Shown here: one piece after another, positions 2,405 to 34,370 of the stretch
How the letters are laid out: each line of letters begins with the position of its first letter
Numbering within the stretch: the stretch's first letter is position 1
Position numbers and translations under genes: made by a program
From: Chloroflexota bacterium
GTDB taxonomy: Bacteria; Chloroflexota; Limnocylindria; Limnocylindrales; CSP1-4
Length of the DNA: 39,223 nucleotides
Direction of reading: 5' to 3'
NCBI GenBank assembly: GCA_045804485.1
Contig: JBJMNA010000028.1
Location: 1-39,223 of the forward strand
Notes under the pieces: model-generated
What the model saw: the letters and a program-made list of their open reading frames with translations, nothing else
Databases searched by the model: none
What the model was told of the DNA's origin: nothing

Positions 2405-5338
2405 GTGCCGACGACCCTTCCGCCACGACCACCGGACGCCACCCTTTCGGTCACCAAGGCCGCCAGGCTGCTTGGCGTGCATCCGAACACGATCCGAGCG
2501 TGGAGCGACGCCGGTCGGCTGCGCTACTACCGGATCAATCCTCGCGGCGATCGCCGCTATCGGCTCGGTGATCTCCAGCGATTCCTCGCAGCGGCCGAGA
2601 CCGGCGCCATGGACGGCGTCCCGACACTCTCGTCGGGCACCTGGGGCGGCCGACGGACCGTCGACCCCGCCGCGGCGGCGCGCTTCGGCACGGCCACGCG
2701 CGGCATGGTCGAGGGGCGGGCCGATCCGCTCGATGCCGAGCGCAACCATCTCGACCTGTCCGTGGCGTCCGCTGTCATCCGCACCATCACAGGCTCTGCC
2801 GACGCCGACGAGGCGCTCGAGACCGCCGTTCGGACGGTCCGCGACGCGTACGGCCATCACCTCGTCGCGGTCTGGCAGGCGCGCGGCGACCGGCTGGTGC
2901 CACGTTCCGTCGCCAGCGCCGACGTCGCCGGGCCATTCCGACTGGCTGACGTCTCGACTCGGTACGGTGTCCTCGGCAAGACCCTCGCGATGGCGGCGAG
3001 CCGGCCGCCGACCGGTCGGACGCCACTGCCGGCCGTGCTTCTTGACGAGCCCGACCAGACGACGCCCGCGATCCTGCCCGACGGTCGGCCCGAGCTGGCC
3101 GTCGCGATCTCCGATGGCCGTGAGCCGTGGGGCGCACTGCTGGTCGTCGGCGAGACGCCGGGCTCGCTCGGGAGCCGGGACATCGATGTCGCGCGCGTCG
3201 TCGCCGACGCCGTCGGCGCGTCGATCGCCGCCGCACAGCGTGCCGACGAGGTCGCGCATCTCCTCCATCGAGCGGAGGCGCTCAGTCGCGTCGCGAGCGA
3301 CATCGGTTCACGGCTCGATCTCGACCGGATCCTGTCCGGTCTCGTCGACCACGCGATGGTGCTGTTCGAGGGCGACCGCGGCGCTGTCCTCCTGCTGCGG
3401 GCCGACGGGCACGTCGTGGCCGAGGTCAGCCGCGGCCTGTCGTCGGTCTACCTCGACCAGATCCGCGACATCCCCGCCCGGAGCCTGCCGAGTGCCGCGA
3501 TCGTGGCGCGCCGGCCGATGTTCGCCGTCGGCTATCGGGACGACCCGCGGGCCGAGGCGGTCCGTGCGGCCGTGGTCCAGGAAGGCTTCGACACGCTTTG
3601 CACGGCACCGCTGCTCGACGGCACGGACCTCCTCGGCATGCTCGACATCTACCACGACCGGCCACATCACTGGACGGAGGACGAGCTCGACACCGTCGGC
3701 GCGCTAGCGACGCAGGCCAGCGTCGCGATCCGGGCAGCGCAGGACTTCGAGCGGATGGCGACGTGGGCTGCACAGCTCCAGTCGATCCAGCAGCTCGGTG
3801 CGCGGCTCAGCAGGCTCTCGAGCGTCAACGACATCGGTCGGTCGATCGCGAGCGAGCTACGCCAGCTCATCGACTACCACAACGCACGCGTCTACCGGCT
3901 CATCGGCCGCGACCTCATCCCGGTCGCGATGCTCGGCCAGGTCGGCGAATACGTCGACGAGACGCCCGACCAGCTCCGGCTGGCGCTCGGCGAGGGCATC
4001 ACCGGCTGGGTCGCGGAGAACCGGATCGCCCAGAAGCTCGGCAATGCCGCCGCCGACCCGCGGGCCTCGACGATCCCCGGCACGGAGGACGACCTCGACG
4101 AGTCGATGCTGCTCGCGCCGATGGTCTTCGACGACAAGGTCCTCGGCGTGCTGGTCCTGTCGAAGCTCGGGCTCGACCGGTTCACCGATGACGACCTGCG
4201 GCTCCTCGTCATCTATGCGAGCTTCGCGGCGCAGGCGATGGCGAACGCCGACACGACCGAGCGTCTTCGCGAGCAGACGCTCGCCCTCGAACAGCAGCTC
4301 CGCGGGCAGCGCGAGCTCCTCCAGATCACCGAATCGATCCTGACGAAGCTCGATGCGAGAAGCGTCCTCGAGAGCGTGACCGAGCGCCTCGAACGACTGA
4401 TCGTCTCGGACAACGTCGCGATCGAGCTGGTCGATCCGGCCACGGGGCTGCTCACGCCACTGACGGCGCGTGGCGTGGATGCCGACTCGTACATGGAGCC
4501 GTGGGAGCCCGGCGAGACCGGCGCCGCGACCTGGGTCGTCGAGCACAACGAGCCGCTCCTGATCCGCGATGAGCGGAACGATTCCCGGGTCAACCAGTTC
4601 AGGACGGACAACGGCGCGGTCGACGGCAGTCTCATCGTCGTGCCGCTCCGCGGTCGCGACGTCGCGGTCGGCGTTCTGACCATCGAACGGCTCGGTCTCG
4701 CGAACGCCTTCTCGGCCGAGGAGTTCGAGCTCGCCCAGCTGTTCGCCGCACAGGTGTCGATCGCGCTCCAGAACGCCGAGGTGTTCGAGGCGGTCGAGAT
4801 CCGTGCCAGGACCGACGACCTGACCGGGTTGTTCAACCACGGGACGTTCCAGGAGTGGCTCGAGCGGAGCGCCCGCGAGGACACGCCGTTCAGCCTGATC
4901 ATGCTCGACCTCGACGACTTCCGGCTCGTCAACAACGAACGCGGCCACCAGGCGGGTGACGCGCTGCTGCGCCGGATCGCGGCCGCGCTCGTCGGCGCCG
5001 GCCGCGACACCGATCTCGTGTTCCGTTATGGCGGCGACGAGTTCACGTTCCTTCTCCCGCATACGGAGGAGGCCGGAGCGCTCCAGGTTGCCGAACGCGC
5101 TCGCCAGGCCGTCGTGAGCGTCGACCTGACGGTCAGTGCCTCGATCGGCGTCGCCACGTTCCCAGCCGATGGCCAGACGGCGAGGGAGGTCCTGCTCGCC
5201 GCCGACCGCGCATGTTTCGTCGCGAAGCGAAGCGGCCGCGACCGGATCGCGACCGCCGCCGAGGGCCTCGCGCTCGCGGCCGAGTTCTCGCTCCAGGAGC
5301 CGACGCCGGTCGATTCGGCGACCACGCCGCCGACGTAG
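2405..5338 (+). CDS. HTH (MerR/excisionase-type) - 4x GAF - GGDEF diguanylate cyclase
   Basis: The N-terminus LSVTKAARLLGVHPNTIRAWSDAGRLRYYRINPRGDRRYRLGDLQRF is an excisionase/MerR-type HTH. Four GAF-like modules follow (approx aa 100-285, 290-450, 455-625, 635-800). The C-terminus reads DDLTGLFNHGTF...LIMLDLDDFRLVNNERGHQAGDALL...RDTDLVFRYGGDEFTFLLP, with an intact GGDEF and an RxxD I-site 5 residues upstream. Confidence 0.9.
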   Translation: MPTTLPPRPPDATLSVTKAARLLGVHPNTIRAWSDAGRLRYYRINPRGDRRYRLGDLQRFLAAAETGAMDGVPTLSSGTWGGRRTVDPAAAARFGTATRGMVEGRADPLDAERNHLDLSVASAVIRTITGSADADEALETAVRTVRDAYGHHLVAVWQARGDRLVPRSVASADVAGPFRLADVSTRYGVLGKTLAMAASRPPTGRTPLPAVLLDEPDQTTPAILPDGRPELAVAISDGREPWGALLVVGETPGSLGSRDIDVARVVADAVGASIAAAQRADEVAHLLHRAEALSRVASDIGSRLDLDRILSGLVDHAMVLFEGDRGAVLLLRADGHVVAEVSRGLSSVYLDQIRDIPARSLPSAAIVARRPMFAVGYRDDPRAEAVRAAVVQEGFDTLCTAPLLDGTDLLGMLDIYHDRPHHWTEDELDTVGALATQASVAIRAAQDFERMATWAAQLQSIQQLGARLSRLSSVNDIGRSIASELRQLIDYHNARVYRLIGRDLIPVAMLGQVGEYVDETPDQLRLALGEGITGWVAENRIAQKLGNAAADPRASTIPGTEDDLDESMLLAPMVFDDKVLGVLVLSKLGLDRFTDDDLRLLVIYASFAAQAMANADTTERLREQTLALEQQLRGQRELLQITESILTKLDARSVLESVTERLERLIVSDNVAIELVDPATGLLTPLTARGVDADSYMEPWEPGETGAATWVVEHNEPLLIRDERNDSRVNQFRTDNGAVDGSLIVVPLRGRDVAVGVLTIERLGLANAFSAEEFELAQLFAAQVSIALQNAEVFEAVEIRARTDDLTGLFNHGTFQEWLERSAREDTPFSLIMLDLDDFRLVNNERGHQAGDALLRRIAAALVGAGRDTDLVFRYGGDEFTFLLPHTEEAGALQVAERARQAVVSVDLTVSASIGVATFPADGQTAREVLLAADRACFVAKRSGRDRIATAAEGLALAAEFSLQEPTPVDSATTPPT

Positions 5339-14995: not shown

Positions 14996-17900
14996 TTGGA
15001 CTGCCCGACATGCGGGACCGCGAACGAACCCGGCCGCAAGTTCTGCGGCGAGTGCGGAACGGCCCTCGCGACGGTCTGCCCATCGTGTGGCGCCTCGAAC
15101 GCGCCGGGCGTCAAGTTCTGCGGCGAGTGCGGGACGGCCCTCCGCGTGACGACCGGGCCAGGAGCGGCCGGAGCACGTGACACGCCGGTCGCCGAGCGTC
15201 GCCTCGTATCGATCGTGTTTGCCGACCTCGTCGGGTTCACGGCGCTGTCCGAATCCCGCGACGCGGAGACCGTCCGCGAGCTGCTCGACCGCTACTTCGC
15301 CACTGCGACCGAGATCATCACCTCGTACGGCGGGACCGTCGAGAAGTTCATCGGCGACGCCGTCATGGCGGTCTGGGGAGCACCGACCGCGTTCGAGGAC
15401 GACGCCGAACGGGCGGTCCGTGCGGGACTCGACCTGGTCGCCGCGGTCGAGGCGCTCGGACAGGAGGTCGGTGCCGAGCTTCGCCTCCGCGCCGGCGTCC
15501 TCACCGGTGAGGCGGCGGTGACGATCGGTGCCACGAACCAGGGGATGGTCGCCGGCGATCTCGTCAACACGGCGTCCCGCCTCCAGGCGGTGGCGCCGCC
15601 CGGGACGGTCCTCGTCGGTGAGCCGACCTTCCATGCCGCATCCGACGCGATCGCGTTCGAGCCCGCCGGCGAACAGGTCCTCAAGGGCAAGACGGCGCCA
15701 GTGCCGGCGTACCGCGCGCTCCGGGTCGTCGCGCGGCGCGGCGGCTCGGGCCGCATCGAGCAGCTCGAGGCACCGTTCGTCGGCCGCGCCCCTGAGCTTC
15801 GGATGCTCAAGGATTTCCACGTCGCGACAGGTGCGGAACGGCGACCGCGGCTGGTGTCGGTCATCGGTCAGGGCGGCATCGGCAAGAGCCGCCTGATCTG
15901 GGAGTTCCAGAAGTACATGGACGGCGTGACCGAGGTCGTCTACTGGCACCAGGGTCGGTCGCCAGCGTATGGCGTCGGCATCAGCTTCTGGGCGCTGGCC
16001 GAGATGGTCCGCAGCCGGACCGGGATCAACGACGGCGATGATCCCGCGGCGGCACGGGCGCGGCTGAGCGCGGCCATCGCGGAATGGGTGACCGACGACG
16101 CCGAACGGCGGTGGATGGAGCCGCGCCTCCTCCAGCTGCTCGGGATCGACCCCGGCGAGGACGCGGAGGCCACCGACCGGGAGTCGCTGTTCGCGGCATG
16201 GCGGCTCTTGTTCGAGCGGGTCGCCGAGCACGGCGTTGTCGTCCTCGTGTTCGAGGACGTCCAGTGGGCCGACGATGGGCTGCTCGACTTCATCGACCAC
16301 ATCCTCGACTGGTCGCGCGAGCGCCCCATCTACATCATCACGTCGGCCCGGCCCGAGCTCCTCGACCGCCGCCGCGATTGGGGCGCCGGTCGGCGGAACT
16401 TCACATCGCTCGTCCTCGAGCCGCTCGATCCCGACCAGATGCGTGAGCTCCTGGCAGGGCTGGTGCCCGGTCTGCCAGCGACGGTCGTCGACCGCGTCCT
16501 CGAGAGGGCTGAGGGGATCCCGCTCTACGCCGTCGAGACGGTCCGGATGCTCCTCGCCGACGGGCTCGTGGCGCTCGAAGGATCGGTCTATCGACCGACC
16601 GGCGATCTCTCCCAGCTGTCGGTGCCGGCGTCGCTCCACGCACTGATCGCGTCGCGCCTCGACGGGCTGGATCCTGCCGATCGGTCGCTGCTCCAGGGGG
16701 CATCGGTCATCGGTAAGACGTTCACCCTCGACGCCCTCGCCGCCGTGAGCGGTGTCCAGCCCGATGACCTCGTTCCGCGGCTCCGGGCGCTCGTCCGTCG
16801 CGAGATGCTCACGCTCGAGGCAGATCCCCGATCGCCCGAACGCGGGCAGTACGGGTTCGTCCAGGGGCTCGTCCGCGAGGTCGCGTACGGCACGCTTGCC
16901 AGACGCGACCGGCGACGGATGCATGTCGCGGCCGCGCGTTACTTCGAGTCGCTCGATGACGAGGGCATCGCGGGCGCGCTAGCGGAGCATTACGTGGCCG
17001 CGTACAAGGCGCAGCCGGACGGTGCCGAGGGCTCTGCCGTCGCCGCGCAGGCCCGCGTCGCGTTGCGGGCTGCGGCCGAGCGAGCCCGGTCGCTCGGATC
17101 GTACGTCCAGGCGATGCGCTTCCTCGAGGAGGCGCTTGACGTAACGACCGATCCGGTCGAAGAAGCACAGCTCCACGCGGCGGCCGGGGAAGCGGGGATC
17201 AACGCCGGACTCATCGACGAGCCGATCGCGCACATGGCCCGGGCGCTCGAGCTCGCGAGAGCGTCGAAGGACCGGCCTGGGCTGATGGCGGCGATCGTGC
17301 GCTATGGGCGCGCAGTCAACGCGTCCGGCCACATCGCGGAAGCGGCAGCGCTCCTCGAGACGGCCCGCGACGACTATCGCGACCTGCTCGAAACCGCGGA
17401 GTACGTCCGCCTCGCGAACGAGCTTGCGCGGTCATACCTCCTGCTCGGGCGCGACGCGGATGCCCTCCAGACGGTCGATGACATCCTCACGACATCCGAG
17501 CGTCTCGACCTCATCCGCGAGACGATCGAGCTCCTCATCACGCGCGGCCCGGCGCTCGCGAATGTCGGCCGTTTGCGCGAGGGCATCGTCACGCTCGTGG
17601 GTGCGGTCGCCGCGAGCAGATCCTACGCCCTGATCGACGCCGAGTTCCGAGCGCGCGTCAACCTCTCCTTCGCCGCGGCCGGTGAGGATCCGCAACTCGC
17701 GTATCGCGTCGCACGCGAAGGCCAGGAGCTGCTGCGGCGGCTGGGCGTTCGCGGCTGGCCGTACATGTTGAGCAACGCCTCCGAGCTCGCCATCCGCATC
17801 GGCGATTGGGATTGGGCAGCCGCCGAGGTCGAGGAAGCCGCCCTTCTCGAGACCGACCTTTCAGCCAGGATGCGGCGCGCCGAGATCCGTGGCCTCCGCG

Positions 17901-18529
17901 GCGAAGACGTGCGCGATGAGCTCGATGCGATCAGCGGTGCCGTCGCCGACAGGACCGAGCTGCAGGCTCACGCCTCGGTCGACGAGATCCGCAGCGCGGT
18001 CGCGCTGGCGCGAGGCGATCTCAAGGAGGCGCTCGACCGCTCGCAGCGGTCGTATCGACTGATGTTCGCGCCAGACACGACACCGGCTCAGACCGCGATC
18101 CGCGCTGCCTCGGCACTCGGTGACAGGGAAGCCGTGAAGGAAGCGCTCGCCGCCATGGCCGGCCAGCCCGGTCGCGTTCTCGATGTCTGCCGGCGCGAGG
18201 GCGAGGCGGCGCTTGCGGTGCTCGAGGGTCGGCGTGACGAGGGATCGGCCGGTTTCGTCGATGCGACGCGTCGGTGGCGCGAGCTCGGTTTCGAATACGA
18301 CGGTGCAGTGTGTGCGCTCACGATGGTCGTGCTCCTCGGGCCGGACGATCCCGCTATCCCAGCCGCCGCCGAGTTCGCGGCGTCGGTGTTCGACCGGCTC
18401 GGGTCCGAGCCGAACCAGAGGCGGCTGGCTGCTGCGCTCGAGCCGCTCGCGGAGGGAGCGACGAGCCGACGCGCTCGGGAAAGTACGGGACGCGGCGCCG
18501 CGACCCGTCCGACCGTCCGAGCAGAATGA
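14996..18529 (+). CDS. double zinc-ribbon / class III adenylate-guanylate cyclase / AAA(STAND, AAA_16)-ATPase / TPR-like repeat protein
   Basis: TTG start with GGAGAGG just upstream. There are two CxxC-x10-CxxC ribbons (CPTCGTANEPGRKFCGECG, CPSCGASNAPGVKFCGECG). The cyclase core reads IVFADLVGFT, VEKFIGDAVMAVWG, DLVNTASRLQ. Walker A is GQGGIGKSRL and the Walker B region is VVVLVFEDVQWAD. About 600 aa of helical repeats follow, with no C-terminal LuxR HTH. Confidence 0.9.
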   Translation: MDCPTCGTANEPGRKFCGECGTALATVCPSCGASNAPGVKFCGECGTALRVTTGPGAAGARDTPVAERRLVSIVFADLVGFTALSESRDAETVRELLDRYFATATEIITSYGGTVEKFIGDAVMAVWGAPTAFEDDAERAVRAGLDLVAAVEALGQEVGAELRLRAGVLTGEAAVTIGATNQGMVAGDLVNTASRLQAVAPPGTVLVGEPTFHAASDAIAFEPAGEQVLKGKTAPVPAYRALRVVARRGGSGRIEQLEAPFVGRAPELRMLKDFHVATGAERRPRLVSVIGQGGIGKSRLIWEFQKYMDGVTEVVYWHQGRSPAYGVGISFWALAEMVRSRTGINDGDDPAAARARLSAAIAEWVTDDAERRWMEPRLLQLLGIDPGEDAEATDRESLFAAWRLLFERVAEHGVVVLVFEDVQWADDGLLDFIDHILDWSRERPIYIITSARPELLDRRRDWGAGRRNFTSLVLEPLDPDQMRELLAGLVPGLPATVVDRVLERAEGIPLYAVETVRMLLADGLVALEGSVYRPTGDLSQLSVPASLHALIASRLDGLDPADRSLLQGASVIGKTFTLDALAAVSGVQPDDLVPRLRALVRREMLTLEADPRSPERGQYGFVQGLVREVAYGTLARRDRRRMHVAAARYFESLDDEGIAGALAEHYVAAYKAQPDGAEGSAVAAQARVALRAAAERARSLGSYVQAMRFLEEALDVTTDPVEEAQLHAAAGEAGINAGLIDEPIAHMARALELARASKDRPGLMAAIVRYGRAVNASGHIAEAAALLETARDDYRDLLETAEYVRLANELARSYLLLGRDADALQTVDDILTTSERLDLIRETIELLITRGPALANVGRLREGIVTLVGAVAASRSYALIDAEFRARVNLSFAAAGEDPQLAYRVAREGQELLRRLGVRGWPYMLSNASELAIRIGDWDWAAAEVEEAALLETDLSARMRRAEIRGLRGEDVRDELDAISGAVADRTELQAHASVDEIRSAVALARGDLKEALDRSQRSYRLMFAPDTTPAQTAIRAASALGDREAVKEALAAMAGQPGRVLDVCRREGEAALAVLEGRRDEGSAGFVDATRRWRELGFEYDGAVCALTMVVLLGPDDPAIPAAAEFAASVFDRLGSEPNQRRLAAALEPLAEGATSRRARESTGRGAATRPTVRAE

Positions 18530-18532
18530 ATC

Positions 18533-18561
18533 TTGCAACTCGTGCGCTTTATGCGTAAGGT
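18533..18561 (+). promoter_or_regulatory. candidate promoter (TTGCAA-17-TAAGGT) feeding the dap leader
   Basis: TTGCAA (18533-18538), a 17-nt spacer, then TAAGGT (18556-18561). The ATG at 18569 is 7 nt after the -10, giving a leaderless configuration. Alternatively, AAGG could act as a weak SD on a read-through transcript. Confidence 0.4.
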
Positions 18562-18568
18562 TTGCAGC

Positions 18569-18649
18569 ATGAACCGCCGCACCTTCTCGGAGGAGTCCAA
18601 GAAGAAGCTCTGGCGGCCCTGCCGGGAGGCACGGGCCCTGGGGCTCTAG
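18569..18649 (+). CDS. candidate leader peptide MNRRTFSEESKKKLWRPCREARALGL (three consecutive AAG Lys codons)
   Basis: ATG at 18569 and TAG at 18647-18649. AAG AAG AAG occupies 18599-18607. In-frame alternative starts exist at ATG 18551, GTG 18542 and TTG 18533. The ORF sits between a promoter-like element and a terminator directly upstream of lysine biosynthesis genes. Confidence 0.45.
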   Translation: MNRRTFSEESKKKLWRPCREARALGL

Positions 18650-18700
18650 ACGGCGCGTCGATCGACGAACCGGGCCTCCAGGGAACGGAGGCTCCAGGGG

Positions 18701-18732
18701 CCGCGGCACCACGACGGTGACCGCGGTTTTTT
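18701..18732 (+). terminator. intrinsic terminator/attenuator hairpin with T6 tract upstream of dapB
   Basis: CCGCGGCACC (18701-18710), loop ACGAC, then GGTGACCGCGG (18716-18726). This gives 10 bp with one bulged A and is followed by TTTTTT (18727-18732), a very unusual T-run for this GC content. It lies 54 nt before the dapB ATG. Confidence 0.6.
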
Positions 18733-18786
18733 CATGTCCTGAACCGCCCCCGACCCGACGGCCCCTCCAGCAGGAAGGGACGAACC

Positions 18787-19521
18787 ATGGACACTGTCAC
18801 GGTGCTCGGCGATGGTCCGCTCGGGCGGGCGATCGAGGCCGCCGCGCGCCAAGGTGGGGACGCGGCGCGCGTGCTCGGCCGGCCCCGTGCGCCCGACGGG
18901 CACGCCTCAAAAGACCTTGCTGGGGCCGACGTCATCGTCGACGCATCGCGCGGCGACGCGGTCCGGGCGAACATCGCGGCCGCGCTCGGCGCGGGCTGCC
19001 GCCGGTTCGTCATCGCGACGACGGGCTGGACAGACGACCGACCCCATGTGGAGGCACTCCTGCGGGAACGCGGCGCAGCGGCGGTCGCGGCGTCGAACTT
19101 CAGCATCGGTGTCGTGCTGTTCGGCCGACTCGTGGAGGCGGCGGTCGGGCTGTTCGGCCCGCTTGAGGCCTTCGATCCGTATCTCCTCGAGTGGCACCGC
19201 AGCTCGAAGCGCGACCGGCCGTCCGGCACCGCCATCGACCTCGCCGACCGGATCGCGGACGCGCACCCGAGACTCGCGCGCCGCGCCGATCTCGAGGTCG
19301 TGTCGATCAGGGCGGGCGCGTCGCCCGGGATGCACCTCGTGGGTTTCGATGCCGCAGGCGAGACCGTCGAACTGCGGCTGACCGCGCGCGACCGCTCGGC
19401 ATACGCGGCTGGGGTCCTCGCTGCCGTCGACTGGCTGCGGCGCGCGCCGCGGACACCGGGCCTTCACCCCTTCGACCCGATCGTGGACGAGCTCATCGCC
19501 CGCGACCCCATCGCTGCCTGA
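18787..19521 (+). CDS. dapB: 4-hydroxy-tetrahydrodipicolinate reductase
   Basis: GGAAGGGA RBS 6 nt upstream. N-terminal dinucleotide fold VTVLGDGPLGRAI, and the catalytic region LEWHRSSKRDRPSGTA (E-x-H-H/R-x-x-K-x-D-x-PSGTA motif). Confidence 0.9.
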   Translation: MDTVTVLGDGPLGRAIEAAARQGGDAARVLGRPRAPDGHASKDLAGADVIVDASRGDAVRANIAAALGAGCRRFVIATTGWTDDRPHVEALLRERGAAAVAASNFSIGVVLFGRLVEAAVGLFGPLEAFDPYLLEWHRSSKRDRPSGTAIDLADRIADAHPRLARRADLEVVSIRAGASPGMHLVGFDAAGETVELRLTARDRSAYAAGVLAAVDWLRRAPRTPGLHPFDPIVDELIARDPIAA

Positions 19522-19533
19522 AAGGATCGAGCC

Positions 19534-20511
19534 ATGACACTCCCCGCAACCACCCGCCCGATGCTCCGAGGTGCATTCACCGCCCTGGTCACGCCGTTCA
19601 CGAGTCAAGGCGAGCTCGACGAGCCTGCCTTCCGTCGCCTGGTCCGCTGGCAGGTCCTCGCCGGGATCGATGGGCTCGTCCCGTGCGGGACCACCGGCGA
19701 GGCCCCGACCTTGACCATCGACGAGCGCGAGCGCCTCATCGCCGCGACCGTCGACGTCGTCTCCGAGCGACCATCGCGTGATCGTGTCCGCGTCATCGCC
19801 GGGACCGGCACGAACGACACCGCGGCGACGATCCGGGCCACCCGCCGTGCAGCCGAGCTCGGCGCGGACGCCGCTCTCGTGGTGGCGCCGTACTACAACC
19901 GCCCGGACGCGCGGATGCTCGACTCGCACTTCCGTGCGATCGCCGATGAGGGCGATCTGCCGATCGTCGTCTACAACGTCCCGTCGCGGACGGGAGCGAA
20001 CGTCGACGCGGATACCTTCCTGCGACTCGCCGAGCATCCGCGCGTCATCGCGGTGAAGGAAGCGAGCGGGAACCTCGAGCAGATCGCCCGGATCTGTCGC
20101 GACCGCCCCCGCGACGTGGCGGTGCTCGCCGGGGACGACGCGTGGACGCTGCCGGTGCTCGCGATGGGCGGTGACGGCGTCGTCTCGGTCGCGTCGAACG
20201 AGATCCCGGGCGAGCTCGTCGCCCTCTGCGCTGCGGCGCGCTCGGGCGACTGGGAGGCAACGCGGCGGATCCACGAGCGCTGGCTCCCGCTCTTCCTCGC
20301 CAACTTCCGGGGCGGCCCGAATCCGGTGCCTGCCAAGGCGGCACTCGTGTCGATGGGCTTGCTCGAAACGGACGCCGTGCGGGCGCCGCTCCTGCCGCTC
20401 GAGGCGGCCGCCGCTGCGGCCATGGACGCGACGCTCCGAGCGCTCGGCCTCGTCGAGCCCGCCGGTGGCCGGTTCACCCCGCAGGTCACGCAGACCGAGG
20501 CCGTCGCATGA
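19534..20511 (+). CDS. dapA: 4-hydroxy-tetrahydrodipicolinate synthase
   Basis: TALVTPF, LVPCGTTGEAPTLT, VIAGTGTNDT, APYYNRP, VVYNVPSRTG and the Schiff-base lysine context IAVKEASGN. Confidence 0.93.
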   Translation: MTLPATTRPMLRGAFTALVTPFTSQGELDEPAFRRLVRWQVLAGIDGLVPCGTTGEAPTLTIDERERLIAATVDVVSERPSRDRVRVIAGTGTNDTAATIRATRRAAELGADAALVVAPYYNRPDARMLDSHFRAIADEGDLPIVVYNVPSRTGANVDADTFLRLAEHPRVIAVKEASGNLEQIARICRDRPRDVAVLAGDDAWTLPVLAMGGDGVVSVASNEIPGELVALCAAARSGDWEATRRIHERWLPLFLANFRGGPNPVPAKAALVSMGLLETDAVRAPLLPLEAAAAAAMDATLRALGLVEPAGGRFTPQVTQTEAVA

Positions 20512-21320
20512 TCACCGAGACCACCGGCGCGGCAGCGACCCCGGCCGCTGCCTTCGATCCGCGAACGATCCTCGACGACCTCGAGTCGGGGCGGGTCCGG
20601 GCAGCCGAACCCGACGCGAGCGCGACCGGGGGCTGGCGCGTCCGACCCGACGCGAAGGCGGCGATCCTCGCCTGCTTCGCGGACCGGACGACTGTGGACC
20701 TCGCGGCAGGGCCGCTCCAGTTCCGCGATCGCGCCGCTGTCCCCCCTCGCGACGACATCGCCGGCGGTCCGTGGCGGGTCGTCCCGGGCGGGACGGCCAT
20801 CCGTCGTGGGGCGCATCTCGGAGAAGGCGTCGTCGTCATGCCGCCCTCGTACGTCAACGTCGGCGCGTGGATCGGCGACTGCACGATGGTCGATTCCCAC
20901 GTGCTCGTCGGGTCGTGTGCTCAGATCGGCGCGCGGGTCCATCTCGCGGCCGGCGTGACCATCGGTGGCGTTCTCGAGCCGCCCGGCGCCCGGCCCGTCA
21001 TCGTCGAGGACGACGCGTTCGTCGGCGCCGGCAGCGTCCTGCTCGAAGGCGTCCTCGTCGGGCACGGCGCGGTCATCGGCGCAGGCGTCACGCTGACCGG
21101 TTCGTCGCGGCTCTACGACCTCGTCCGCGGGCGGGTCCTCGCCGGCACCTCCGAGGCGCCGCTTGTCGTGCCGGCGGGTGCGGTCGTCGTGCCCGGGGCG
21201 CGGCGGATGACCGGCGGGTTCGCCGAGGAGCACGGGCTGTCGGTCGCCGTCGCACTGCTCGTCAAGGACCGCGATGCCGGCACGTCAGCACGCGTCGCGC
21301 TCGAGGAGGTCCTTCGATGA
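20508..21320 (+). CDS. dapD: 2,3,4,5-tetrahydropyridine-2,6-dicarboxylate N-acyl(succinyl)transferase
   Basis: Collinear with E. coli DapD: [69 protein letters not shown] versus [68 protein letters not shown]. ATGA overlap with dapA. Confidence 0.9.
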   Translation: [270 protein letters not shown]

Positions 21321-22657
21321 GCCTCGATACGGTCGAAACTGCGCCACCACGGCCGCGCCGGCCCGTCCGGACCGAGATCGCGGACGAACGCCTGCTGGCA
21401 GGGCTCGACCCCGGCCATCTCGCGGCCCGATTCGGGACGCCGCTGTACGTCTACGACCTCGACGTCGTCGAGCGACACCTCGCGGCACTCCAGGCCGACG
21501 TCCCGCCGCGCGTCGACATCGCCTATGCGGTGAAGGCGAACCCCGCTCTCGCCGTCGTCGCGCATCTTGGCGCTCTCGGGACGGGCGCCGACGTCGCATC
21601 AGGTGGCGAGCTGGCGACCGCCCTCCGTGCCGGGATCCCGGCGGGGCGCATCGTGATGACCGGGCCCGGCAAGCGCGACGAGGAGCTGCGCGCGGCCGTC
21701 GAGGCAGGCGTGCGCGCCGTCACGGTCGAATCGCGCGGCGAGCTCGGACGGCTCGAGGCGATCGCCAAGGATGCCGGTCGCGTCCAGCCCGTCCTTCTGC
21801 GGATGGCCGTCGGTGGGCGCGGACGGCTCGAACGCGTCCGCCTCGTCGGTGACGACGGTGCGGGCAAGTTCGGGATGGACTTCGCCGACCTTGCCGAGTC
21901 GGCGGCGGACGCGGTCGCCTCGGGACATCTCGACTTCCTTGGCGTCCATGCGTTCGGGGCATCGAACGTCCTTGACGCGGAGGCGCTCCTCGAGCACGTC
22001 GCGGCGACGGTCCGGGTGGCGCGACGACTAGCGATGCGTGTGGGCACGCCGCTCCGGCTGATCGATGCCGGCGGCGGGCTCGGGATCCCATACGAGGCGG
22101 ATGAGGGAACGCTCGACCTCGGGGCGCTCGGGCGCGGCCTCGCGGCGATCACGGCCAGCTGGGCGCAGGACCCGATCCTCGCCGACGCGCGGCTGCTTCT
22201 CGAACCCGGGCGCTTCCTGGTCGGACCGGCTGGCGCATACCTGGCGCGCGTGGTCGACCGCAAGACCGTCGGCGGCTCGGGCGTCGTCATCCTCGACGGC
22301 GGTGTCCATCACGTCCTGCGGCCGGCGCTCGTCCGGCAGGAGCATCGGATCCATGCGTTCGGGTCGGGCACCGGGCCGACGGTCCCGGTCACGGTCGCGG
22401 GACCGCTGTGCTCCGGCCTCGACGTGTTCGGTCACGGCGTACCGATGACGCCACCGGAGGTCGGCGACCTCGTCGCGATCCTCGATGTCGGCGCCTACGG
22501 CTTCACCGAATCGATGCCGTTCTTCCTGTCGCATCCGATCCCAGCCGAGGTCGCCGTGCGGGCAGGTCAAGCCGTCCTCATCCGACCGCGGCAGGAGCCC
22601 GGAGAGTGGCTGGACAGGCAGCTGCTCCCCGCGTGGGAGTGGTCGGCGGATCGGTAG
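21317..22657 (+). CDS. lysA: diaminopimelate decarboxylase (PLP-dependent, Orn/DAP/Arg decarboxylase family 2)
   Basis: FGTPLYVYD, PLP lysine context AYAVKANP, DVASGGEL, KFGM, IDAGGGLGIPY, LLEPGRFLVGPAG and AGPLCSGLD...VGAYG. ATGA overlap with dapD. Only the last 446 codons of ORF 20171..22657 are used. Confidence 0.9.
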   Translation: MSLDTVETAPPRPRRPVRTEIADERLLAGLDPGHLAARFGTPLYVYDLDVVERHLAALQADVPPRVDIAYAVKANPALAVVAHLGALGTGADVASGGELATALRAGIPAGRIVMTGPGKRDEELRAAVEAGVRAVTVESRGELGRLEAIAKDAGRVQPVLLRMAVGGRGRLERVRLVGDDGAGKFGMDFADLAESAADAVASGHLDFLGVHAFGASNVLDAEALLEHVAATVRVARRLAMRVGTPLRLIDAGGGLGIPYEADEGTLDLGALGRGLAAITASWAQDPILADARLLLEPGRFLVGPAGAYLARVVDRKTVGGSGVVILDGGVHHVLRPALVRQEHRIHAFGSGTGPTVPVTVAGPLCSGLDVFGHGVPMTPPEVGDLVAILDVGAYGFTESMPFFLSHPIPAEVAVRAGQAVLIRPRQEPGEWLDRQLLPAWEWSADR

Positions 22658-34293: not shown

Positions 34294-34370
34294 CCGCCCG
34301 TAGCTCAGTGGATCAGAGCGACTGACTTCGGATCAGTAGGTCGGGGGTTCGAATCCCTCCGGGCGGGCCA
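34294..34370 (+). tRNA. tRNA-Arg (anticodon UCG), CCA encoded
   Basis: Hand-folded cloverleaf. Acceptor CCGCCCG/CGGGCGG. D arm GCTC-AGTGGATCA-GAGC (A20 present). Anticodon stem ACTGA/TCAGT with loop CTTCGGA (U33, UCG, G37). Variable loop AGGTC. T arm GGGGG-TTCGAAT-CCCTC. Discriminator G plus CCA. The C1:G72 first pair is atypical for tRNA-Arg. Confidence 0.9.

Follow-up and report, generated by a model that had tools for sequence, protein, structure and literature searches.

Lysine and methionine biosynthesis are textbook cases of control by riboswitches or regulatory proteins, and the locus described here raises the question of whether a lysine operon can be governed by the ribosome that translates a short open reading frame (sORF) with consecutive lysine codons ahead of it. 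The locus belongs to a Chloroflexota bacterium (Limnocylindria; Limnocylindrales; CSP1-4; assembly GCA_045804485.1), and the stretch analysed, hereafter the window, comprises positions 1-39,223 of the forward strand of contig JBJMNA010000028.1, with a G+C content of ~70%. In it, the 254-nt gap between the end of a cyclase/AAA/TPR gene and the start of dapB, the first gene of a dapB-dapA-dapD-lysA operon, is occupied by a leader. An earlier description made from the letters alone (the sequence-only reading) had recognised four elements in order in this gap, namely a promoter-like element, a sORF with a lysine run, segments capable of alternative pairing and an intrinsic terminator, and had interpreted them as a lysine-responsive leader-peptide attenuator. 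All four are present where it had placed them, and its interpretation is supported by the conservation of the lysine run, by the negative results with Rfam families, by synteny and by a paralogue of the methionine type. The leader is most likely a ribosome-mediated attenuator by which transcription of dapB-dapA-dapD-lysA responds to the charging of tRNA-Lys. At the level of its sequence it shows three features expected of such a regulator: a sORF with its own start and stop, cognate codons in excess of chance and a terminator before the first gene.

Conservation of the leader and signs of its translation

A DapB-based scan, keeping one genome per species, provided 80 loci with 55-84% DapB identity, all of them in Chloroflexota metagenome-assembled genomes (MAGs) labelled Limnocylindria, Limnocylindrales or 'Chloroflexia'. 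The hidden Markov model (HMM) of the leader matches directly upstream of dapB in every one of these 80 loci, with dapA downstream of dapB in 78, dapD in 75 and lysA in 61, this last count being limited by the length of the flanks. On the contrary, a homologue of the upstream cyclase gene occurs in only 6 of the 80. As the leader stays with the dap-lys genes while the gene upstream varies, the element belongs to the dap-lys operon and not to the tail of the preceding gene. From the lysine codons to the terminator it is nearly invariant in nucleotides, including ~75 nt past the stop codon.

The sORF (18569-18649, forward strand) consists of 26 codons and a TAG stop at 18647-49, starts with ATG and encodes MNRRTFSEESKKKLWRPCREARALGL. 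Its regulatory lysine codons, AAG AAG AAG, stand at 18599-18607 on the same strand and form a run that is unique in the window, AAGAAGAAG being found once across both strands of the 39 kb. The claim that lysine is rare here, so that three consecutive residues are improbable by chance, agrees with the composition of the four neighbouring proteins, where lysine makes up 0.94% of residues, giving a probability of ~2e-5 for KKK in a 26-mer. The exact run is kept in 69 of the 80 loci, and the other 11 display KAK, KQK, KSK, KPKSK or KK. Two to three lysine codons are retained in all 81 leaders, the most divergent ones included, and they always lie just 5' of codons for (L/R)-W-R-P.

Signs of translation were examined in 53 distinct leaders of standard length, across which start, stop and frame of the previously proposed ORF are maintained. 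Its start is ATG in 43 and GTG in 10 of them, with no other codon observed, and the stop keeps a fixed in-frame position while changing its identity (TGA in 27, TAG in 15, TAA in 11). Independence of the two variable columns of the stop would predict ~7.6 occurrences of TGG, and none is seen. Codons 2-10 drift at all three positions, with 9 synonymous and 52 nonsynonymous variant types, and insertions or deletions in its N-terminal part come in steps of 3 nt. The leaders that diverge most have lost 1 nt from the 3' arm of the hairpin P2, described below; this deletion creates another in-frame TAG, a few codons ahead of the usual stop position, and the ORF still closes. Codons 11-26 behave differently: only one of these 16 codons varies at its third position, and of the 11 variant codon types observed 10 are nonsynonymous, which indicates that conservation acts there on the RNA and not on the peptide. 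Near-complete invariance is indeed to be expected where most nucleotides serve coding and two alternative helices at once.

The strongest argument for a ribosome that reads these codons as the sensor comes from a second class of leaders. In one of the 80 loci (L048), the leader HMM gives a second, weaker match ~4 kb upstream of dapB (795-960), where the same scaffold is found, ...TGG CGG CCC... followed by GGGGCCGCGG-loop-CCGCGG-T7. Its sORF, MSLHSRSMCMRWRPRRTEDGV plus stop, carries Met-Cys-Met exactly where Lys-Lys-Lys sits in the lysine leader. A pattern scan of metagenomes, whose pattern left out most lysine-type leaders (those with T after TGGCGGCCC), yielded among many chance matches four more leaders of the methionine type, with NMCMRWRP, TMCMRWRP, MCAMCMPWRP and SMMSMPWRP. 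The five Met-type leaders (L048:795-960; L099:2620-2779; L120, L178, L198 (reverse strand)) therefore have MCM, MCAMCM or MMSM in place of KKK, and they share with the Lys-type the scaffold TGGCGGCCC...GGGGCCGCGG...CCGCGG-Tn. Three of the Met-type loci extend far enough to show the operon, and in all three it is metY-metX, MetY being an O-acetylhomoserine sulfhydrylase (TIGR01326, >660 bits) and the best match of the second product being a MetX-like homoserine O-acetyltransferase. The scaffold is thus constant and the codons follow the amino acid made by the operon. Such a swap at a fixed position is hard to reconcile with a metabolite-binding RNA, in which the pocket, not the codons, should change. 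Rfam detects no SAM riboswitch and no other family in the Met-type leader, and a search for further codon classes (regular expressions and nhmmer on the 120 loci of the metagenome scan) returned only Met-type leaders. In L048, the metY-metX operon is flanked by OsmC-like genes.

When the window and the 80 dapB loci were scanned generically for a sORF followed by a terminator, the lysine leaders were the only matches, and a scan of viral contigs as negative control gave 23 chance matches and no leader. One locus (L014) contains two copies of the lysine leader on one scaffold (4146-4309 and 4379-4489) with a run of N between them; the first copy is complete and is followed by a GAGGAGG sequence resembling a ribosome-binding site (RBS). 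The duplication is due to a join made in the assembly or to a second leader preceding another gene.

Promoter-like element, terminator and competing helices

All features of the leader described in this section lie on the forward strand. The proposal of a promoter-like TTGCAA-17-TAAGGT whose -10 hexamer ends 7 nt before the ATG agrees with the sequence: the -35-like TTGCAA is at 18533-18538 and the -10-like TAAGGT at 18556-18561, with a spacer of 17 nt between them and 7 nt up to the ATG at 18569. Among orthologous leaders, the -35-like hexamer is near-invariant as TTGCAT or TTGCAA and the -10 is mostly TATGGT or TATAGT at the same 17-nt spacing, resulting in a general layout TTGCAT-17-TAtgGT whose end lies 7 nt (range 6 to 10) before ATG or GTG. 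Between the end of the -35 and the start codon there are 30 nt in 34 loci, 29 nt in 8 loci and 33 nt in 5 loci. No Shine-Dalgarno (SD) sequence precedes the start of the sORF in the orthologous leaders. From this layout we infer the transcription start site, and the sORF is probably leaderless or nearly so.

The intrinsic terminator (18697-18732) is a bulged, GC-rich hairpin, 18699-18710/18716-18728, that runs into T6 at 18727-32, with a predicted energy of -21.5 kcal/mol. The ~10-bp hairpin plus T6 of the sequence-only reading is hence present, with 10-12 bp and a 1-nt bulge, and 54 nt separate it from the dapB ATG at 18787. It is conserved in the orthologues, with 97.3% of alignment cells paired. 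A simple scan for promoters and terminators reported nothing at the leader, owing to the bulged stem and the weak -10; for the terminator, the bulge was the sole reason. Under a uniform criterion (at least 4 T, a folding energy of -14 kcal/mol or lower for the preceding 44 nt, and a hairpin ending at the T run), 102 sites occur in the 762 kb formed by the window and the 80 loci (L001-L080), of which 69 are the leader terminators and 33 lie elsewhere; the window holds only two further sites, both weaker. Canonical terminators are therefore rare in these genomes, which argues against this hairpin as a routine gene-end signal and suggests that most of their genes end without a canonical intrinsic terminator.

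The leader folds better than shuffled versions of itself (z = -3.65), and the state in which the terminator is formed comprises four further hairpins. P1 (18583-18604, -7.5 kcal/mol) pairs the Phe-Ser codons (CUUCU) with the lysine codons (AGAAG) and shows the best covariation of the leader, with double changes in 5 of its 8 pairs and, at alignment columns 26-35, which are third positions of two Ser codons, CG in 33 and GC in 28 sequences. In L027, where the second lysine codon has changed from AAG to GCG, its P1 partner has changed from UUC to GUC and the hairpin is maintained. P2 (18606-18645, -29.1 kcal/mol) joins segment 1 (18606-23) with segment 2 (18628-45); it starts at the last two bases (AG) of lysine codon 3 and ends 2 nt before the stop. 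With 96.9% of cells paired, P2 is mostly invariant, presenting one-sided changes from UG to UA or CG, and in L041, L077 and L079 a loop shorter by 6 nt takes the place of its tip. P3 (18651-18672, -8.7 kcal/mol) is a spacer hairpin variable in loop and length, with some double changes. P4 (segments E:F, 18672-18694, -13.6 kcal/mol), within which the previously noticed GCCUCC/GGAGGC hairpin is present at 18674-92, shares its 3' arm with segment 3 and has compensatory changes in 3 of 7 pairs, such as GCUUCC/GGAAGC in L053, the Met-type leaders having GGGACC/GGUCCC. Loops are conserved as well, among them AGGGAAC in P4 and GGGA at the tip of P2. The SD-like motif GGAGG is seen at 18625-18629, in the P2 tip and inside the sORF, and at 18686-18690, within the P4 3' arm; in the Met-type leaders, too, the P2 tip contains it. 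These motifs might pause ribosomes or be plain stem sequence.

Because RNAalifold is weak on so invariant a leader, the helices of the terminator state (P1, P2, P3, P4 and the terminator) were defined by hand and scored on the alignment of 81 leaders. They are paired in 93.5% of cells and accumulate 13 pairs with double changes, against 4.6+-1.3 in shuffles, none of 500 shuffles being as high, and clearly above controls with slid positions. The RNAalifold consensus of the same 81 leaders has a covariation term of -0.14 and is limited to portions of P2, P4 and the terminator.

Two helices could compete with the terminator. In helix (a), segment 3 (18687-18703), which covers the first 7 nt of the terminator 5' arm, is the candidate antiterminator partner of segment 2 (18632-47), with a duplex energy of -29.3 kcal/mol (duplexfold). 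It is pairable at 95.4% across the 81 leaders, and contains a single compensatory pair, 18638:18697, which is CG in 71 and UA in 5 leaders, from one clade. The pairing singled out by the sequence-only reading, CCCUGGGGCU (18636-45) with GGCUCCAGGG (18690-99), forms part of this duplex, so that the complementarity stands; the support that it receives from covariation and equilibrium folding is weak. In helix (b), or B:G, the Trp-Arg-Pro codons GCGGCCCU (18613-18620) are a second candidate antiterminator arm, complementary to GGGGCCGC (18697-18704, -18.7 kcal/mol); this helix is 98% pairable with one-sided changes only, is conserved in Lys- and Met-type leaders, and nests around a helix of segment 2 with segment E (18636-45:18673-83, -22.5 kcal/mol). 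The predicted energies of -29.1, -29.3 and -21.5 kcal/mol for the 1:2, 2:3 and 3:4 segment pairs fit the proportions of a classical attenuator.

Beyond the terminator, a conserved hairpin (18759-18786) pairs the SD sequence of dapB (GGAAGGG) with an upstream CCCCUCC and is followed by the spacer to the dapB ATG. Its arms covary among orthologues, as in CCCUCG/CGAGGG and CCCUCA/UGAGGG. It may constitute a second, translational layer of control or be a mere local structure of the RBS.

Proposed mechanism and rival explanations

The transcription start, the stalling, the choice of antiterminator and the regulatory outcome that we infer would be as follows. Transcription would begin at the ATG at 18569 or a few nucleotides from it, and translation of the 26-codon, leaderless sORF by a ribosome would accompany the transcription of the leader by RNA polymerase. 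With abundant Lys-tRNA, this ribosome would reach the stop at 18647-49 and, this codon lying at the end of segment 2, would cover that segment (18628-45). If the sORF were not translated, segments 1 and 2 would stay paired as P2, with the same outcome as with plentiful Lys-tRNA. With segment 2 covered or paired, segment 3 would form P4, the terminator (18697-18732) would fold and transcription would end before dapB. When Lys-tRNA is scarce, the ribosome would stall at AAG AAG AAG (18599-18607), melting P1 and the 5' arm of P2, and a freed arm could capture the first 7-8 nt of the terminator 5' arm. This arm might be segment 2 (18632-47 with 18687-18703) or GCGGCCCU (18613-20 with 18697-18704), and in either case the terminator would be unable to close at the U tract and the polymerase would read into the operon.

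Folding with a modelled ribosome footprint (P-14 to P+14; minimum free energy, MFE, of the full-length leader for each codon in the A site) gives partial agreement with this scheme. In the leader of the window, the terminator is lost only with lysine codon 1 or 2 in the A site, helix (b) being formed, and is kept with the ribosome at the stop. Loss at or just before the lysine codons is also predicted in L027 and L072 and, partly, in L071 and L079. For the nascent RNA of 68 leaders, freeing the terminator 5' arm costs 8.5-9.3 kcal/mol if the ribosome is placed at the Ser, Lys or Leu codons, 6.5-7 kcal/mol at early codons or without a ribosome, and 7.3 kcal/mol at the stop. When all RNA 5' of the ribosome is masked, equilibrium folding retains the terminator at every position. 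Thus, as far as these models go, two antiterminator candidates exist that are mutually exclusive with the terminator, as the sequence-only reading had anticipated, and their geometry fits stalling at the lysine codons; the switch itself is absent in several orthologues, equilibrium folding predicting a ribosome-dependent switch that is only partial.

Several observations weigh against an attenuator of this kind. Four of the nine Lys-type leaders tested (L041, L077, L075 and L058) retain the terminator at all ribosome positions, and the five Met-type leaders never drop below half of its pairs, two keeping it full at every position, whereas the fraction retained falls at isolated positions in two and along extended stretches in one. 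Even without constraint, the MFE structures of L048 and L120 have the B:G helix in place of the terminator base. At the lysine codons the cost rises by only ~2 kcal/mol, and some other codons reach the same level. Covariation is nearly lacking in the antiterminator helices, which hardly vary at all. Segment E (18673-83), which leaves the polymerase before segment 3, is a competing partner for segment 2, so that the order of folding matters. Codons 11-26 are essentially without synonymous change and the loops are conserved too, exceeding the conservation of classical attenuators, an excess that could reflect an extra function at the RNA level. In L064, a nanopore-based MAG, a 1-nt deletion at ~4775-4800 places the ATG out of frame with the lysine codons; it is the sole exception among the 81 leaders, and probably a homopolymer or indel sequencing error. 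Finally, the organisms are uncultured MAGs, in which lysine response and transcript ends are predictions.

Considering these points, an RNA that binds a ligand or a factor, riboswitch-like or protein-binding, and acts on the terminator with the sORF as an incidental or secondary feature, would be compatible with the extreme nucleotide conservation at 55-84% DapB identity, loops and post-stop nucleotides included, with the lack of synonymous variation in codons 11-26 and with the lack of a clean ribosome-dependent switch in equilibrium folding, Lys and Met pathways being normally riboswitch-controlled (PMC1262725). It is nonetheless unlikely, given that start and stop behave as real codons, that no Rfam model matches, and that one scaffold is common to two pathways with only the codons swapped from Lys to Met/Cys, where a binding pocket would be expected to differ; conservation is, moreover, explicable by coding plus two alternative helices per nucleotide. 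Tracking of the pathway by the codons (Lys versus Met) would also be expected of a specifier codon, as in a T-box-like device in which uncharged tRNA-Lys reads AAG and stabilises an antiterminator without translation, and GGUGACCGCGG in the terminator bears a loose resemblance to the T-box sequence. That string is, however, in the 3' arm of the terminator, the wrong topology, and with no RF00230 match even at E<=10, lysine codons that are base-paired in P1 instead of being displayed in a specifier loop, and 2-3 cognate codons, tandem or interspersed, in frame with a conserved start and stop, such a device is barely credible.

The hairpin plus T6 might otherwise be an ordinary terminator or insulator of the cyclase gene, whose stop codon is 170 nt away on the same strand, with a dapB promoter further downstream and a sORF arising by chance, open frames being common at 70% GC. 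This is highly improbable: the upstream gene differs in 74 of the 80 loci and the leader stays, so that the hairpin is not merely the end of a cyclase transcript; the sORF is separated from the upstream gene by a conserved promoter; and KKK and the stop are conserved. The 54 nt after the terminator contain the conserved SD hairpin and no sigma-70-type promoter in a consensus scan of 17500-20000, which also missed the promoter of the leader itself. The almost invariant 'SKKKLWRPCREARALGL' terminus would suit a sORF that encodes a functional small protein, or a terminated leader RNA of ~164 nt acting in trans, attenuation being secondary, and roles in trans are reported for the peTrpL peptide and the rnTrpL RNA of Sinorhizobium (PMC7298713 and PMC7968998), which provide a precedent. 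Against a small protein stand an invariance at the nucleotide level, with third positions fixed and 10 of 11 variant codon types nonsynonymous, and the drift of the N-terminal half; a role in trans would come on top of attenuation in cis, not in its stead. This proposal appears quite improbable. The near-total invariance of the attenuator, loops included, may still denote a second function, for example as a trans-acting leader RNA or through a bound factor.

The operon, related systems and biological meaning

The genes behind the leader are those previously named, as their profile matches corroborate, and all are on the forward strand. dapB (18787-19521), for 4-hydroxy-tetrahydrodipicolinate reductase, matches Pfam DapB_C and DapB_N, and TIGR00036 with 101.9 bits, under the cut-off of 122; dapA (19534-20511; DHDPS) matches PF00701 with 278.5 bits, dapD (20508-21320; tetrahydrodipicolinate N-succinyltransferase) matches NF008808 with 254 bits versus a cut-off of 204, and the lysA-like diaminopimelate decarboxylase gene (21317-22657, ATG at 21317) matches Orn_Arg_deC_N and Orn_DAP_Arg_deC. 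Overlaps of 4 nt, of ATGA type, are present between dapA and dapD (20508-20511) and between dapD and lysA (21317-21320), indicating translational coupling inside the operon. Directly upstream of the leader, 14996-18529 encodes a 1177-aa protein with a double zinc ribbon, an adenylate/guanylate cyclase, an AAA_16 ATPase and TPR. A tRNA gene (34294-34367) is the sole Rfam match at gathering score across the window.

Covariance models of Rfam thus reveal no riboswitch family in the window at gathering score and none in 18400-18900 even at E<=10, a range in which no known family appears. Two candidates were rejected: the L-box (RF00168), which gives no covariance match at gathering score or at E<=10 and whose five-way junction is absent, and the T-box (RF00230), without a match at E<=10 and with the lysine codons paired in P1. 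The leader shares with the L-box its position 5' of lysine biosynthesis genes and an intrinsic terminator as output, and differs from it in that the conserved, translated sORF and the codon swap of the Met-type paralogue argue for sensing of tRNA charging and not for direct binding of lysine.

Closer likeness exists to the leaders trpL, hisL, leuL, thrL and pheL of E. coli and Salmonella and to that of ilvB1 in Mycobacterium tuberculosis, whose 'LVVI' upstream ORF is a leader-peptide attenuator (PMC13236596), the general model of leader-peptide attenuation being restated there and in 10.1101/834739. Common to all of them are a short ORF with cognate codons, a terminator and overlapping helices 1:2, 2:3 and 3:4, together with a stop that lets the terminating ribosome cover segment 2 and a biosynthetic operon as the regulated target. 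Unlike those classical attenuators, the leader described here senses lysine, made by the diaminopimelate (DAP) pathway, and has a methionine sister; its sORF is apparently leaderless and without an SD; and segment 2 is contested by one more helix pair (P4, segment E). Sequence conservation is also far higher than in the enteric leaders, and one scaffold is reused with other codons. The polycysteine sORFs of mycobacteria resemble it in being of leaderless type, starting at AUG or GUG, with consecutive cognate codons in a high-GC host. They act translationally, the Cys-codon tract pairing with the downstream SD, without transcription termination (bioRxiv 10.1101/834739), in contrast with the hairpin plus U-tract terminator that is here placed between sORF and dapB. 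Pairing of the cognate codons with the SD is not found in this leader, in which the lysine codons pair with CUUCU in P1 and the dapB SD with the nearby CCCCUCC.

A comparative study of Actinobacteria identified no RNA element acting on the operons for lysine or methionine, the usual regulators of which it gives as the L-box and the S-box (PMC1262725). In the literature searched, no attenuator in which the ribosome responds to Lys or Met codons is reported. To our knowledge, the only precedent for Lys-codon attenuation is the alpha-aminoadipate (AAA) lysine cluster of Thermus thermophilus, reportedly controlled by a Lys-codon leader peptide (Tsubouchi et al., J Biol Chem 2005). That system reportedly has, likewise, a short leader ORF with tandem lysine codons and a terminator before lysine genes; it differs in phylum and in pathway, which is AAA and not DAP. 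The leader described here would represent an established kind of regulator, unusual in the amino acid to which it responds, and belongs to a small family with a modular scaffold and differing regulatory codons.

A broader proposal, tentative and with somewhat less than an even chance of being right, is that Limnocylindria reuse one leaderless scaffold (TGGCGGCCC...GGGGCCGCGG-loop-CCGCGG-Un) in which 2-3 codons retarget regulation from lysine to methionine, and perhaps to other pathways, in replacement of L-box and SAM riboswitches. If the attenuator reading is true, an uncultured class that is abundant in soil and freshwater, the Limnocylindria, would regulate lysine and methionine through the sensing of tRNA charging, and these leaders would be a natural case in which the specificity of an attenuator evolves by codon replacement on a fixed RNA scaffold. 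The leader also gives a sequence signature for the annotation of regulons in MAGs and represents a compact, GC-rich and probably leaderless part for synthetic amino-acid sensors.

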